From an uncultured Chlamydiaceae bacterium (GTDB lineage Bacteria; Chlamydiota; Chlamydiia; Chlamydiales; Chlamydiaceae): DNA of 64,000 nt. The notes under the pieces are model-generated. The model did not search any database. It had not been told where the DNA came from and saw only the letters and a list, made by a program, of their open reading frames with translations. Both the position numbers and the translations under genes were made by a program. Below are positions 51,680-61,525 of this stretch, in pieces (position 1 is the stretch's first letter; each line of letters starts with the position of its first letter). The stretch covers positions 32,966 to 96,965 of the forward strand of contig CAUWIK010000004.1 of the NCBI GenBank assembly GCA_963558895.1, read 5' to 3'.

Positions 51680-51699
51680 GAATGAAATTAACAACAATG

Positions 51700-51728
51700 T
51701 TGATTAAAAGTTTGTATTCTTTTAAACT
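51700..51728 (+). promoter_or_regulatory. candidate sigma-70-type promoter in the rho-carA spacer
   Basis: TTGATT (51700-51705), 17-nt spacer, TAAACT (51723-51728). Chance matches are common in AT-rich DNA. Confidence 0.25.
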
Positions 51729-51784
51729 TTCTTTCCAAATGAAGAGAATTAAAAGTATATTATTAATAATTTGATTAATGGGAG

Positions 51785-51815
51785 CCATCTATCTTGAGAT
51801 AGATGGTTTTTTTTT
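51785..51815 (+). terminator. strong intrinsic terminator abutting the carA start (rho terminator and/or pyr attenuator)
   Basis: Perfect 9-bp stem CCATCTATC (51785-51793) / GATAGATGG (51798-51806), loop TTGA, then nine T (51807-51815). GTG ATG of carA follows immediately. Confidence 0.8.
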
Positions 51816-52868
51816 GTGATGTTGAAGGAATGTTTATTTTTAGAATCAGGAGAGATATTTTTAGGAAAACAAGAGACTTCTTTTTCTGGAGAAGGAGAAG
51901 TTGTGTTTACAACAGGGATGTGTGGTTACGTAGAGAGTTTAACAGATCCTTCTTTTTCGAAGCAGATTTTAGTTTTTACCTATCCTATTTTAGGCAATCA
52001 TGGAGTTCATGATAAACATACTTGGGAAGGATTGAAAATTTCTGTGGCAGGAGTTGTGGTTAGTTATTTGAGTAATCAATGGAGCCATGCCCAAGGAATA
52101 ATGTCTTTAAGAGAATGGTGTGAAATTGAAAAAATCCCTTTGATTTCTTCTATAGATACAAGAAGGTTAACAAAAGTTATTAGGAATAAAGGAAGTTTAT
52201 GGGGATATATTGGAGAGAAAAAAGCAACAAAAAATAATTTTAAAAAAGAAGTTAATTTAGTTGCTTCTGTAACGCCAAAGGAAAAATCTTTACATAATTG
52301 GAGCAAAAATCATCGTCATCAGGTTATTGTTGTTGATTGTGGAATGAAAAATAACATTTTGAAAGAGCTTTCAAAATTTCCTATTAATATTGTTAGAGTC
52401 CCCTATGATTATGATTATTCAAAAGAATATTTTGATGGCATATTTATCTCGAACGGACCAGGAGATCCTTCAATATGTTCTGAGACAGTTAGTATTCTTA
52501 AAAACGTTATGTCTTGTGGAAAGCCTATATTTGGAATATGTTTGGGATTACAACTGATGGCTTTAGCTATTGGGGCAAAAGTTTATAAGTTGCCTTTTGG
52601 GCATAGAGGTCAAAATCAACCTTGTTTTTGCATAGAGGATAAAAGATGTTATTTGACTAGTCAGAATCATGGTTTTGCAGTTGATGCGAATTCCTTACCA
52701 AAAGATTGGCAGGTATGGTTTGTTAACTTAAATGATAATTCTGTGGAAGGAATAAAGCATAGTTTTTTACCATTTTTTTCTGTTCAGTTTCATCCAGAAG
52801 CTGCTCCTGGTCCTACCGATACAATGTGGTTATTTAAAAGGTTTTATCAATGTATATTGGATCAATAA
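51816..52868 (+). CDS. carA: carbamoyl-phosphate synthase small (glutaminase) subunit
   Basis: 350 aa. VVFTTGMCGYVESLTDPSF, GATase triad context GICLGLQLMA and FSVQFHPEA. The start is GTG 51816 or ATG 51819. Confidence 0.95.
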   Translation: MMLKECLFLESGEIFLGKQETSFSGEGEVVFTTGMCGYVESLTDPSFSKQILVFTYPILGNHGVHDKHTWEGLKISVAGVVVSYLSNQWSHAQGIMSLREWCEIEKIPLISSIDTRRLTKVIRNKGSLWGYIGEKKATKNNFKKEVNLVASVTPKEKSLHNWSKNHRHQVIVVDCGMKNNILKELSKFPINIVRVPYDYDYSKEYFDGIFISNGPGDPSICSETVSILKNVMSCGKPIFGICLGLQLMALAIGAKVYKLPFGHRGQNQPCFCIEDKRCYLTSQNHGFAVDANSLPKDWQVWFVNLNDNSVEGIKHSFLPFFSVQFHPEAAPGPTDTMWLFKRFYQCILDQ

Positions 52869-58936: not shown

Positions 58937-60046
58937 ATGATAAATGATGATTATTTACAAGATGATTCCTTAAATTTTTGGCTTAAAAATCCTCCTATTT
59001 ATGATATCTCTAAATCATATGAGGAAAATTTATTGCAAGGACCTTTTCTTAGAGAAAATTTTTTATCTAAAAGGATTTTTCCTTCTGAAGATTTATGGAT
59101 AGATTTTTTAGGTCATAAAATAGCTTCTCCTATAGGTATTCCTGCAGGACCTTTGTTGGATGCAGACTGGGTAATAGCAGCATCGCGCTTAGGATTTGAT
59201 GTTCTTACTTATAAGACAATTCGTAGCCGTTTTACTCCAGCTCACAAGCTTCCTAATATGTTGTTTGTAGATAAAGATTCTTTAGTAGCTTTACCTAAAG
59301 GTAAACGACCAAAAAATATTTTAGATTTAGCAGTAACAAATTCTTTTGGAGTTCCTTCTCAAGATATTGAATTTATAAAAAAAGATATAAAAAAAGCCTT
59401 AGAAGGTATTAAAAAAGGTCAATTGTTGATTGTATCAGTTATGGGAACTTCTCCTAGTAATGCTCATGAACCTTCTTTAGAAGAAGATTTTGCTCAGACT
59501 GCTTTATTAGCTGTTGAAGCAGGAGCTCCCATTATAGAGTTAAATTTTTCATGCCCTAATTTAAGTTGCTCTTTAGGGGAAACTTATACGGATGCTAACT
59601 TTATTGCTAAGGTAATTTCTAATGTAAAATCTTATATTAAAGATGTTCCTATAATAGCTAAGTTAGGTAAATTTGATAATGATGCTACTTTGAGAAAAGT
59701 AGTTTGTGCTGTTGCTGAAGCTGGAGGAGCAGGCATTTGTGGGCTTAATACATTAAAAATAGAACTTAAAGATGAAAATGGGGAACCAGCTTTAGGAAAA
59801 GAACGATTAAAAGCTGGTATATGTGGTGTTCCTTTAAGACAAGAAGCTTTGGAATTTGGGAAAAAAGTAACTCTAATTAAACAACAAGAAAATTTGGATT
59901 TAAAATTGCTACTTACAGGAGGAGCAGTAATTCCAGAGCATTTACATGATTTTTTAAATGTTTCTGCAGATATAGCAATGACTGCAGCTGGTATGATGTG
60001 GAATCCTTTTTTAGCTTTACAATTTCATGGGAGTGTTCATGTGTAA
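58937..60046 (+). CDS. pyrD: dihydroorotate dehydrogenase, divergent class-1-like (Cys catalytic base)
   Basis: 369 aa. ASPIGIPAGP, ELNFSCPN (Cys where class 2 enzymes have Ser) and LLLTGGAV. About 50-aa N-terminal extension. No pyrK next to it. Confidence 0.75.
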   Translation: MINDDYLQDDSLNFWLKNPPIYDISKSYEENLLQGPFLRENFLSKRIFPSEDLWIDFLGHKIASPIGIPAGPLLDADWVIAASRLGFDVLTYKTIRSRFTPAHKLPNMLFVDKDSLVALPKGKRPKNILDLAVTNSFGVPSQDIEFIKKDIKKALEGIKKGQLLIVSVMGTSPSNAHEPSLEEDFAQTALLAVEAGAPIIELNFSCPNLSCSLGETYTDANFIAKVISNVKSYIKDVPIIAKLGKFDNDATLRKVVCAVAEAGGAGICGLNTLKIELKDENGEPALGKERLKAGICGVPLRQEALEFGKKVTLIKQQENLDLKLLLTGGAVIPEHLHDFLNVSADIAMTAAGMMWNPFLALQFHGSVHV

Positions 60047-60644
60047 CCAATCTTTAAGAAAAGTTATTCTAGAACTATTCGACATAGGTGTTTTTCAATT
60101 TGGTAATTTTACTTTAAAAACAGGAATTAATTCTCCCATATATATAGATTTAAGAAGAATTATTTCTAAGCCAAAGTTGTTAGTTATTATATCTAAATTA
60201 ATGTGGAAAGATTTTCTAGATTCAATAGATGTTATTTGTGGAGTTCCATATACGGCTCTACCTATAGCTACAGTACTTTCTATTGAATATCAAATTCCAT
60301 TAGTTTTAAAGAGAAAAGAAGAGAAGAACTATGGATTAAAGAAGAAGATAGAAGGAATTTTTCATGAAGGAAATAGGTGTGTAATAATAGAGGATGTTAT
60401 TACATCTGGATCTAGCATTTTAGAAACTAAAAAAGATTTGGAAAAAGAAGGTCTTTTAGTGAAAGAAGCTTTGGTTTTTCTGAACAGGGGTCAGGGAGGA
60501 GAAAATAATTTATTAAGTAAAGGAATAAAGGTTTATTCTGTTTGTTCGTTATTTGAGGTTTTAGACATTCTTCTTTATTCTATGAAAATTGATCAGGTTT
60601 GTTATGAAAGAGTTATAAATTTTTTAAATACTCATCGGGTATAA
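60039..60644 (+). CDS. pyrE: orotate phosphoribosyltransferase, UMP-synthase (eukaryote)-like type
   Basis: ATG at 60039 overlaps the pyrD end. FQFGNFTLKTGINSPIYIDLRRIISKPKLL, CGVPYTALPIATV and the PRPP loop CVIIEDVITSGSSILET. Near-collinear with my recollection of the N-terminal domain of human UMPS. Confidence 0.92.
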   Translation: MCNQSLRKVILELFDIGVFQFGNFTLKTGINSPIYIDLRRIISKPKLLVIISKLMWKDFLDSIDVICGVPYTALPIATVLSIEYQIPLVLKRKEEKNYGLKKKIEGIFHEGNRCVIIEDVITSGSSILETKKDLEKEGLLVKEALVFLNRGQGGENNLLSKGIKVYSVCSLFEVLDILLYSMKIDQVCYERVINFLNTHRV

Positions 60645-60647
60645 AAT

Positions 60648-61424
60648 ATGAAAAATAAAAGTTATTCTGATAGAGCAAAATTAACAAAACATTCTTTAGG
60701 AAAAGATTTACTAGAGTTATTAGACAAAAAACAAACAAATTTGGGGGTAGCTCTTGATGTTACATCTTGTAAAGAATTTTTAAAAATAGCTAATGAGATA
60801 GGTCCTCATATATGTATTCTTAAAACTCATATAGATATATTAGAAGATTTTACTATAGATTTTATTCAGCAATTAATGGATTTGTCTATAAAGCATAATT
60901 TTCTAATTTTTGAAGATAGAAAATTTGCTGATATTGGTAATACAGTACAACTACAATATAAAAAAGGCATTTATAGAATTTCTGATTGGGCTCATATAAT
61001 TAATGCTCATATTTTACCAGGATCTGGTATTATTGAAAGTTTAAGGACAGTTGGTCTTCCTCTTAATAGAGGATTATTATTACTTGCAGAGATGAGTTCA
61101 AAGGATAACTTGTTTTCTGCTTCATATACTTCAACAGCTGTTAGGTGGGCAGAACTGTATGAAGATTTTGTTATTGGTTTTATTTCTCGAAGAAAATTAT
61201 CTTTTAATGAATCTTTTATTTATTTTACTCCTGGGGTAAGTTTAAATAGGCAAAGTGATGCAATAGATCAAAATTATTTTACTCCAGAACAAGTGATAGG
61301 ATCCTTAGGAAGCGATATTATATTAGTAGGAAGAGATATTTATAAAGCAGAGTTTCCTGGTAAACAAGCTGAACTTTATAGACAAGAAGGATGGGATGCA
61401 TATAAAACTCGTTTGAGTGTTTAA
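60648..61424 (+). CDS. pyrF: orotidine-5'-phosphate decarboxylase, URA3/UMPS (eukaryote)-like type
   Basis: 258 aa. KQTNLGVALDV, ICILKTHIDIL, FLIFEDRKFADIGNTV, LLLLAEMSS, GSDIILVGR and the GWDAYKTRL C-terminus all parallel yeast URA3 / human UMPS as I recall them. Confidence 0.93.
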   Translation: MKNKSYSDRAKLTKHSLGKDLLELLDKKQTNLGVALDVTSCKEFLKIANEIGPHICILKTHIDILEDFTIDFIQQLMDLSIKHNFLIFEDRKFADIGNTVQLQYKKGIYRISDWAHIINAHILPGSGIIESLRTVGLPLNRGLLLLAEMSSKDNLFSASYTSTAVRWAELYEDFVIGFISRRKLSFNESFIYFTPGVSLNRQSDAIDQNYFTPEQVIGSLGSDIILVGRDIYKAEFPGKQAELYRQEGWDAYKTRLSV

Positions 61425-61525
61425 AGATTTTGATAAGATTAATTTATAAATTAAAATGATTCTTTTATTTTTTTATTTCTTTTAAAATAAAATTATCCAC
61501 AATTATTAATTGTTCTTTATTAAAT

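Follow-up and report, generated by a model that had tools for sequence, protein, structure and literature searches.

Complete routes from glutamine to uridine monophosphate (UMP) have been described in Waddlia chondrophila and Criblamydia sequanensis (PMC2878342, PMC4333871), complete UMP synthesis has been noted in some marine-sediment chlamydiae (10.1101/577767), and the Sororchlamydiaceae are reported to be richer in pyrimidine genes than most other chlamydiae (PMC9666466). In the Chlamydiaceae, de novo nucleotide synthesis is inferred to have been lost after the split from the sister clade (10.1101/577767). A lone pyrE is found in Chlamydia pneumoniae, C. psittaci, C. felis and C. caviae as well as in C. 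abortus (PMC3091639, PMC3323650, PMC10242142), and the reason for its retention has been called unexplained (PMC3091639). Here we describe a block of eight pyrimidine genes, carA-carB-pyrB-pyrI-pyrC-pyrD-pyrE-pyrF, which lies between rho and glgC (positions 51680-61525) in a 64-kb stretch of DNA from an uncultured Chlamydiaceae bacterium (contig CAUWIK010000004.1); this whole stretch is termed the window, and all coordinates are in its numbering. We are confident, without being certain, that this block is a functional operon for de novo pyrimidine synthesis, native to the lineage and inherited vertically. The pathway itself is not new, since it has already been published both that other chlamydiae have it complete and that the Chlamydiaceae lost it; an earlier, sequence-only reading of this DNA thus overrated how unusual the block is, given the complete pathways of Waddlia and Criblamydia (PMC2878342, PMC4333871).

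The likeness to Waddlia and Criblamydia is that a chlamydia with an obligate intracellular life encodes all the glutamine-to-UMP enzymes and has nucleotide transporters as well, and uncultured environmental chlamydiae have loci with the same gene order. The window lineage differs from Waddlia and Criblamydia in its position next to or inside the Chlamydiaceae and in its G+C content of around 30%. Moreover, its operon fills the rho-glgC interval, which is the site of the relics in the Chlamydiaceae, whereas Waddlia and Criblamydia were compared by pathway and not by gene position. The orphan pyrE of Chlamydia resembles that of the window in having the small antisense open reading frame (ORF) upstream, glgC downstream and the same orientation; however, it stands alone, without the other enzymes of the pathway, while the pyrE of the window is one of eight genes.

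Two classical systems are also relevant. In Bacillus subtilis, the pyr operon has the order pyrR-pyrP-pyrB-pyrC-pyrAA-pyrAB-pyrK-pyrD-pyrF-pyrE and is controlled by PyrR-mediated attenuation. The window resembles it in having the whole pathway in one cluster behind a leader with an intrinsic terminator, but differs in gene order, in lacking pyrR, pyrP and pyrK, and in having pyrI. In Escherichia coli, the genes of the pathway are scattered, and the pyrBI operon is preceded by the PyrL leader peptide and an attenuator that is sensitive to uridine triphosphate (UTP). Here the likeness is twofold: an aspartate carbamoyltransferase made of PyrB and PyrI (class B type), and a hairpin with a U-run before the first structural gene, with a short ORF ending at or in this hairpin. 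Unlike that of E. coli, the putative attenuator of the window precedes carA and all eight genes.

The pyr block and its enzymes

The eight genes occupy the plus strand from 51819 to 61424, with rho on the left and glgC on the right. Family calls, which were based on NCBIfam (TIGR) and Pfam profile scores relative to the curated cut-offs, agree with the ORFs and families of the sequence-only reading and with its statement that the genes take up the whole rho-glgC interval. The overlaps of 4-19 nucleotides (nt) that it had given are borne out by measured overlaps of 19, 11, 4, 4 and 8 nt (or 20 nt for the last, depending on the choice of pyrE start). Its eight consecutive same-strand genes are indeed all on the plus strand, but pyrC and pyrD are split by a minus-strand ORF of 98 amino acids (aa); its claim that every step to UMP is encoded holds insofar as eight families could be assigned, but the call for pyrD is far weaker than those for the other seven.

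According to the proposed scheme, CarAB would produce carbamoyl phosphate from glutamine, bicarbonate and adenosine triphosphate. Both subunits of this glutamine-dependent carbamoyl-phosphate synthase (step 1) score above their cut-offs, the Cys and His-Glu motifs of the glutamine amidotransferase are readable in the sequence, and in independent assemblies gene callers start carA at the ATG at 51819. Carbamoyl aspartate would then be produced by PyrB together with PyrI, its regulatory chain. Both chains of this aspartate carbamoyltransferase (step 2) are present, PyrB with readable STRTR and HPSQ motifs, and PyrI with matches to both Pfam PyrI and PyrI_C and with the four Cys of its CxxxxC and CxxC zinc motifs. 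Ring closure (step 3) would be due to PyrC, to which dihydroorotase models give 265-303 bits; its DPHVH, KVFLG, AVHAEDE, ILHVST and GSDHAPH motifs are conserved, and the ligands of the binuclear-metal site (HxH, Lys, His, His and Asp) are intact. PyrD, a divergent flavin dehydrogenase, would oxidise dihydroorotate (see the next section), and PyrE and PyrF would convert orotate to UMP. The last two enzymes, orotate phosphoribosyltransferase (step 5) and orotidine-5'-phosphate decarboxylase (step 6), are both encoded: PyrE, for which the gene callers choose the 201-aa start, has an intact phosphoribosyl pyrophosphate motif, and in PyrF both the catalytic motif FEDRKFADIGNT and the DxKxxD motif are intact. 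The relatives of PyrE that have an organism name are mostly chlamydial, with around 50% identity.

PyrE also resembles the orotate phosphoribosyltransferase domain of the eukaryotic UMP synthase, and PyrE, together with PyrF by its FEDRKFADIGNT motif, resembles the two halves of that enzyme. Insect UMP synthases (P0105 and P0125) are within the best 120 matches of PyrE, at 41-46% identity.

The pyr ORFs are intact in every assembly seen. In two related species (loci L089 and L090, where L-numbers denote the compared genomic loci, which were read up to 10 kb on either side of the queried gene), the arrangement is identical, including the antisense ORF, and the proteins are 68-88% identical to those of the window, from PyrE (68-71%) to CarB (88%). 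Within the genus, the ratio of nonsynonymous to synonymous substitution rates (dN/dS) is 0.07-0.23 for pyrB, pyrI, pyrC, pyrD and pyrF (0.09-0.13 for pyrB and 0.07-0.09 for pyrI), and the tested genes, pyrD included, are under purifying selection. The overlapping stops and starts probably couple translation, and the genes form two sub-blocks, carAB-pyrBIC and pyrDEF, with the small minus-strand gene between them; any division into transcription units is a prediction.

Table 1. Features of the rho-glgC region in window numbering, with the profile scores on which they are based
Feature	Position	Strand	Score or remark
TLC-family nucleotide transporter	44298-45941	+	Pfam TLC, 543 bits
rho (left flank)	50279-51679	+	TIGR00767, 715 bits; sohB-polA-coaE-rho synteny conserved
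Candidate leader ORF, 30 codons (speculative)	51682-51774	+	Starts 3 nt past rho stop codon
Terminator-like hairpin and T9	51780-51814	+	14-bp stem; ends 4 nt before carA ATG
carA, carbamoyl-phosphate synthase glutaminase subunit	51816/51819-52868	+	TIGR01368, 403 bits, cut-off 307
carB	52850-56056	+	TIGR01369, 1360 bits, cut-off 1027
pyrB, aspartate carbamoyltransferase catalytic chain	56046-56957	+	TIGR00670, 358 bits, cut-off 237
pyrI, aspartate carbamoyltransferase regulatory chain	56954-57400	+	TIGR00240, 129 bits, cut-off 148.6
pyrC, dihydroorotase (long, type I)	57397-58656	+	TIGR00857, 265 bits, cut-off 279
Conserved 98-aa ORF, antisense	58629-58925	-	Occupies 281-nt pyrC-pyrD gap
pyrD, divergent chlamydial-type dihydroorotate dehydrogenase (predicted)	58937-60046	+	Pfam DHO_dh, 40.5 bits, cut-off 27
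pyrE, orotate phosphoribosyltransferase	60027/60039-60644	+	TIGR00336, 132 bits, cut-off 107
pyrF, orotidine-5'-phosphate decarboxylase	60648-61424	+	TIGR01740, 181 bits, cut-off 92
glgC (right flank)	61526-62800	+	Adjoins pyrF end of block
Metallophosphoesterase	62853-63611	+	3' of glgC

The order of the flanking genes, npt(TLC)-sohB-polA-coaE-rho 5' of the block and the metallophosphoesterase gene 3' of it, matches the local order in the fetched Chlamydia loci, and the G+C content is around 30% across the whole window. The TLC transporter, 6 kb upstream of the operon, has the same position relative to sohB-polA-coaE-rho in two Chlamydia loci (L094 and L098). Nucleotide import and pyrimidine synthesis apparently coexist in the window lineage. 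Further upstream, on the minus strand (41368-43215), is a gene for a DnaB helicase of 615 aa with an intein splicing domain (Pfam PF14890) at residues 423-552; the DnaB of the Chlamydia-like locus L098 has 469 aa, and no intein domain is listed for it.

PyrD and the working of the pathway

The weakest link in the claim of a complete pathway is PyrD. Of the profiles, only Pfam DHO_dh passed, every NCBIfam equivalog for dihydroorotate dehydrogenase (DHOD) being far below its cut-off, and the best NCBIfam match was PreA, with 52 bits against a cut-off of 335. The relatives of PyrD (P0289, P0332, P0351 and P0366 among them) are variously named in public records, where proteins of this chlamydial type appear as DHOD, PreA, tRNA-dihydrouridine synthase (Dus) or hypothetical protein. 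Among the fold matches in the PDB, there is no close solved structure. Further points against a working pathway are the scores of PyrI (129 against 148.6 bits) and PyrC (265 against 279 bits), which are slightly below the curated cut-offs, and the absence from the 64-kb window of prsA, which would supply phosphoribosyl pyrophosphate, and of pyrH, ndk and pyrG, which would lead on to UTP and cytidine triphosphate.

Since PyrD scores poorly, has inconsistently named relatives and has no close structure, the case for step 4 is based on its context, on conserved motifs and on one fusion of PyrE with PyrD. The catalytic Cys (Cys206, in SCPN) is held in an ELNFSCPN motif, and the catalytic Cys/Asn set, together with the Lys, Asn and Gly of the flavin mononucleotide (FMN) site, is invariant among 35 PyrD homologues. 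More than 500 relatives were found, of which those with an organism name are mostly chlamydial (43-50% identity), and within operons the gene nearly always adjoins pyrC and pyrE. The fusion is found in a metagenomic protein of 552 aa (P0349), in which PyrE and PyrD domains are joined. Operon context and residues together make it highly probable that PyrD is the DHOD of the pathway, any assignment of its function and electron acceptor being a prediction.

The AlphaFold (AF2) model of PyrD has a predicted local distance difference test score (pLDDT) of 90.4, and in the PDB Foldseek ranks class 2 DHODs highest, along with the FMN domain of dihydropyrimidine dehydrogenase (DPD), with template modelling (TM) scores of 0.66-0.73 and less than 20% identity. 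The Cys base, as read from the motif, is class-1-like or DPD-like. A helical N-terminal extension of around 50 aa is, on the other hand, class-2-like, and no pyrK is found in the block. With a class-1-type Cys, a class-2-like N-terminus and no PyrK partner, PyrD fits no defined class of DHOD; it belongs to a divergent chlamydial subfamily. This subfamily is widely mis-annotated and deserves bench work.

Could the genes be present without providing a working route to UMP? PyrD might be another flavoenzyme, of the DPD or Dus type, as its best NCBIfam match (to PreA) and the appearance of the DPD domain alongside the DHODs in the Foldseek results would allow. Alternatively, the operon might be silenced and heading for loss, since a strong terminator-like hairpin abuts the start of carA, a TLC nucleotide transporter has been kept, and the sister lineages did lose the pathway. 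However, purifying selection acts on all the tested genes, pyrD among them, the ORFs are intact wherever they have been seen, and the catalytic residues of PyrC, PyrF and PyrB are intact, as is the Cys/Asn set of PyrD. Furthermore, dozens of operons have PyrD in the slot flanked by pyrC and pyrE, it is once fused to PyrE, and the block needs no other candidate DHOD to be complete. We therefore consider a non-functional route to be unlikely.

The operon and its relics in other chlamydiae

A search with an alignment of chlamydial-type PyrD gave 80 metagenome loci, around 35 of which have the genes arranged as carA-carB-pyrB-pyrI-pyrC-pyrD-pyrE-pyrF, for as much of the series as their contigs cover. 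In eight loci (L095, L102, L108, L119, L122, L129, L136 and L152), glgC and/or the metallophosphoesterase gene lies 3' of pyrF; both follow pyrF directly or one gene later in L095, L119, L129 and L136, and in L108 glgC follows pyrF at the end of a short contig. In two loci (L114 and L127), a second pyrB-like (carbamoyltransferase) gene of around 1 kb is in the slot between pyrC and pyrD that is used elsewhere by the antisense gene. In two long-read-style contigs (L095 at 2983-3938 and L096 at 2117-6329), carA and carB are broken into several ORFs, which is probably due to assembly frameshifts rather than to real pseudogenes.

The left junction is less constant. In front of the L095 operon is hemH and not rho: SBP_bac_3 (minus strand) and hemH (plus strand) lie upstream of carA at 1-2459. 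In the Chlamydiaceae loci L092-L094, SBP_bac_3 and hemH are downstream of the glgC-metallophosphoesterase pair and in the orientation opposite to that in L095. This comparison suggests an inversion around the pyr-glgC block. L179, a genome contig of 1.8 Mb, has the arrangement of L095 with the pyr genes deleted.

In the Chlamydiaceae, the interval between rho and glgC contains different pieces of the same block. In Chlamydiifrater volucris (L092), it contains a pyrC-like gene, orf85 (minus strand) and pyrF; in Clavichlamydia (L093, GCA_015356765.1), it contains orf90 (minus strand), pyrD and pyrF; in Chlamydia crocodili (L094) and another Chlamydia (L097), it contains a small minus-strand ORF and pyrE; and in a further Chlamydia-like contig (L098), it contains the small ORF alone. 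According to the sequence-only reading, the operon would be unremarkable if most Chlamydiaceae carried all of it here; the compared Chlamydiaceae have only fragments. The Chlamydia PyrE is 46% identical to that of the window and has the same locus, orientation and neighbours. The PyrC-like protein of Chlamydiifrater (L092, 5414-6568) is encoded by an intact ORF of 375-384 aa, but it is only 24% identical to PyrC and has lost every metal ligand, and the PyrF of this genus (L092, 7159-7917) is degenerating, with several conserved motifs lost; the two are either decaying relics or repurposed pseudoenzymes. A relaxed tblastn search of the Chlamydiaceae spacers for pseudogene traces of the lost pyr genes gave only noise, so that the deletions appear to have been clean.

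That different genera have different pieces of one ordered block means that the full block was at this locus in their common ancestor. A unit of the form carAB-pyrBIC-(small antisense gene)-pyrDEF-glgC-metallophosphoesterase would then be older than the split between the window lineage and the Chlamydiaceae, and Chlamydia, Chlamydiifrater and Clavichlamydia would later have lost different genes in place. Chlamydia would have been left with pyrE, Chlamydiifrater with pyrF and a dead pyrC-like gene, Clavichlamydia with pyrD and pyrF, and all of them with the antisense gene. As an in-place relic of the pyr operon, the orphan pyrE of Chlamydia would be explained. The pattern also agrees with the published view that the Chlamydiaceae gave up de novo nucleotide synthesis once they had diverged from their sister clade (10.1101/577767).

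Where the window lineage belongs was examined via its flanking genes. Rho is 84-85% identical to that of Chlamydia crocodili, Chlamydiifrater volucris and Candidatus Clavichlamydia salmonicola, and 75-78% identical to that of metagenome-assembled genomes of Parachlamydiales and Waddliaceae. For GlgC, the closest named relative is Chlamydiifrater (57%), with Chlamydia at 55-56% and Clavichlamydia at 55%. A neighbour-joining tree of PolA, CoaE and Rho (1422 ungapped columns, 500 bootstraps), which did not include named Sororchlamydiaceae sequences, puts the window in a clade with Chlamydia, Chlamydiifrater and Clavichlamydia (100% bootstrap) and, within it, as sister to Chlamydia plus Chlamydiifrater (89%), with Clavichlamydia outside. 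In the PyrF of both Clavichlamydia (L093, 7149-7925) and Chlamydiifrater (L092, 7159-7917), however, DRKFADIGNT has been replaced by DRK[F/Y]SELG[D/E]V, a change not found in the window. This common change hints that the window lineage may branch off outside Chlamydia, Chlamydiifrater and Clavichlamydia alike, its position then being Sororchlamydiaceae-like. The change could be a shared derived state, at odds with the tree, or the result of convergence under altered function. The disagreement between the tree and the PyrF substitutions over the placement relative to Clavichlamydia makes the vertical account less tidy; whichever placement holds, the window lineage is among the nearest relatives of the Chlamydia pathogens.

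Is the block native to its locus? The G+C content of the block at third codon positions (GC3), 0.152, matches the 0.161 of 32 flanking genes, and the correlation of relative synonymous codon usage (RSCU) between block and flank is 0.983, compared with 0.990 +/- 0.003 (minimum 0.970) in a flank-versus-flank control; composition is uniform over both junctions. No tRNA gene lies within 8 kb of the block (the nearest is at 43378-43465), the only flanking repeats are AT-rich, of low identity and at noise level, and NCBIfam and Pfam scans found no integrase, transposase or other mobility gene between npt and the end of the window. The sequence-only reading had called for this comparison of GC3 and codon usage and had judged that the block is not a recent mobile island, and the figures bear it out.

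The block might instead have been gained horizontally into the rho-glgC interval, either anciently, with its composition since adjusted, or from another chlamydia. A scan of contigs based on Rho, in which only four of 80 loci were chlamydial because Rho is too conserved, found neither pyr genes nor glgC within 10 kb downstream of rho in these four Parachlamydiales/Waddliaceae loci. This result speaks against the vertical account, as does the hemH upstream of the operon in L095, which means that the left junction is not universal. The rho-carA junction may therefore be younger than the operon. Against a transfer are the different collinear fragments, with the antisense gene, that three genera of the Chlamydiaceae carry at this locus, the pyrF-glgC-metallophosphoesterase linkage that is widespread in distant chlamydiae, the native codon usage and absence of mobility signatures, and the mostly chlamydial origin of the organism-named relatives of PyrD and PyrE. 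We consider a transfer to be quite improbable. Of the two origins proposed in the sequence-only reading, an ancestral operon is preferred here, given the native composition, the same gene order in distant chlamydiae and the collinear relics at rho-glgC; the acquisition of a pathway at a single locus is disfavoured, given that three genera have such relics there.

That a pyr operon of foreign origin was put into a chlamydial contig by an error of assembly or binning, an idea whose only ground is that the data are of the metagenome type, can be dismissed for practical purposes: the exact block proteins recur in assemblies of NCBI, ENA and Logan, the same genes and identical rho-carA and pyrF-glgC junctions are found in contigs of six or more independent samples and two assembler families, two related species have these junctions too, and composition does not change across them.

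The leader, the embedded gene and the loss of pyrimidine synthesis

Between rho and carA is a hairpin (GGGAGCCATCTATC-TTGA-GATAGATGG... then T9) in which, as in an intrinsic terminator, a G+C-containing stem is directly followed by a U-run. The 151-nt leader has a folding z-score of -2.8, and the hairpin pattern has one match in the window and none in 100 shuffles. The hairpin is kept in the two related species (L089, at 1669-1780, and L090) with a change that preserves a G-U pair. A CCATC...GATGG stem base followed by T7-9 is found directly 5' of carA in L095 (2835-2866), L106 (255-293) and L119 (3134-3165), where T-A pairs in the inner stem have been swapped for C-G. The gene upstream of the hairpin is not rho in L095 nor, as fetched upstream sequence revealed, in L119; the contig of L106 begins 255 nt upstream of the hairpin, so its upstream neighbour cannot be read. 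The hairpin is absent upstream of carA in L111, L116 and L096. In the Chlamydiaceae, a similar hairpin follows rho in Clavichlamydia (L093, 5473-5516) and none follows rho in C. crocodili.

There is no room for a promoter in the 4 nt between the U-run and the start codon, so that transcripts of carA must read through the hairpin. The output of carA would then probably be set by read-through of a leaky terminator or attenuator. The candidate leader ORF stops 10 nt before the hairpin, ORFs in the same frame in L089 and L090 end inside the hairpin loop, and short ORFs in L106 and L119 stop within their hairpins or shortly before them; altogether, a short ORF ends at or inside the hairpin in five of six leaders. 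In an alignment of the leader ORFs, read by eye, several Leu codons differ at two nucleotides and still encode Leu.

Other roles for this element were considered and rejected. The PyrR-binding attenuator (Rfam RF00515) matched with 27.4 bits, compared with a gathering score of 54; its binding-loop segment of 19 nt aligned to 2 nt, the match consisted of the terminator and an A/U-rich spacer, and there is no pyrR in the block. A DNA operator for a dimeric repressor does not agree with the spacing of the CCATC-GATGG half-sites, which differs between lineages (6 to 15 nt). Nor is the hairpin a mere terminator of rho, since the same element is found before carA without rho upstream (L095 and L119) and since there is no room for a promoter of carA.

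The antisense ORF is convergent with pyrC, with an overlap of 28 nt, and divergent from pyrD, with 11 nt between the start codons. Homologues of 83-107 aa are in the same place and orientation in L089, L090, L092-L095, L097 and L098, and a homologue was present in all nine loci first compared; their common motifs are M..LF.GIP, Y/F-L/I-G and IFPE.LIG. A profile hidden Markov model built from nine sequences added L103, L108, L119 and L120, with matches only between pyrC and pyrD, and also matched the relic loci L097, L098 and L179. The small gene is found in five of the 42 loci with adjacent pyrC and pyrD, and so it marks a subclade that includes the Chlamydiaceae. Its dN/dS is 0.26-0.28. No significant match was found in Pfam, NCBIfam, a PDB profile search or Foldseek, and a phmmer search of 1.8 billion representatives gave two matches only, both close relatives with 58-70% identity. 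The AF2 model has a moderate pLDDT of 76 and a small alpha/beta fold.

The antisense gene persists without the pyr genes in L098 and, beside glgC, in L179. Since it outlives the operon in these two loci, its function is not tied to pyrimidine synthesis alone. According to the sequence-only reading, one small hypothetical gene separates rho from glgC in C. trachomatis; this fits L098, where the one gene in the interval is homologous to the antisense ORF, which is apparently the same gene. The antisense gene is present in every Chlamydiaceae genome examined, even where all the pyr genes have been lost.

By analogy with E. coli, one might speculate that the hairpin is a translation-coupled, pyrimidine-sensing attenuator of the pyrBI type that predates the Chlamydiaceae, and that the antisense gene once had a role in the control of the operon and is now independent of it; this idea is tentative and, in our opinion, rather doubtful. 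Were it true, the phylum would, to our knowledge, have its first described cis-regulatory element that responds to a metabolite, and there would be a way into an uncharacterised gene that is present at rho-glgC in all the Chlamydiaceae genomes examined. In the literature searched, we did not find a description of the decay of the operon genus by genus, of the embedded antisense gene or of the leader hairpin, though supplements may hold them, and pyrimidines go unmentioned in the paper on the Clavichlamydia genome. Both the hairpin and the small antisense gene are conserved and are candidates for bench work.

The significance of the locus is primarily evolutionary. It indicates that Chlamydia became auxotrophic for pyrimidines through the piecemeal, lineage-specific deletion of a single operon at a single locus, and the same history explains why Clavichlamydia and Chlamydiifrater have stray pyrD, pyrF and pyrC-like genes. 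This is a clean and instructive case of reductive evolution, which overturns no existing view. It may reasonably be inferred that the host dependence of the window lineage would differ from the textbook chlamydial model, and the lineage would be a pyrimidine prototroph. A very close relative of the pathogens thus probably makes its own UMP, as far as can be judged from its genes, which would be useful in thinking about host dependence and, if the organism can be grown, about axenic culture.

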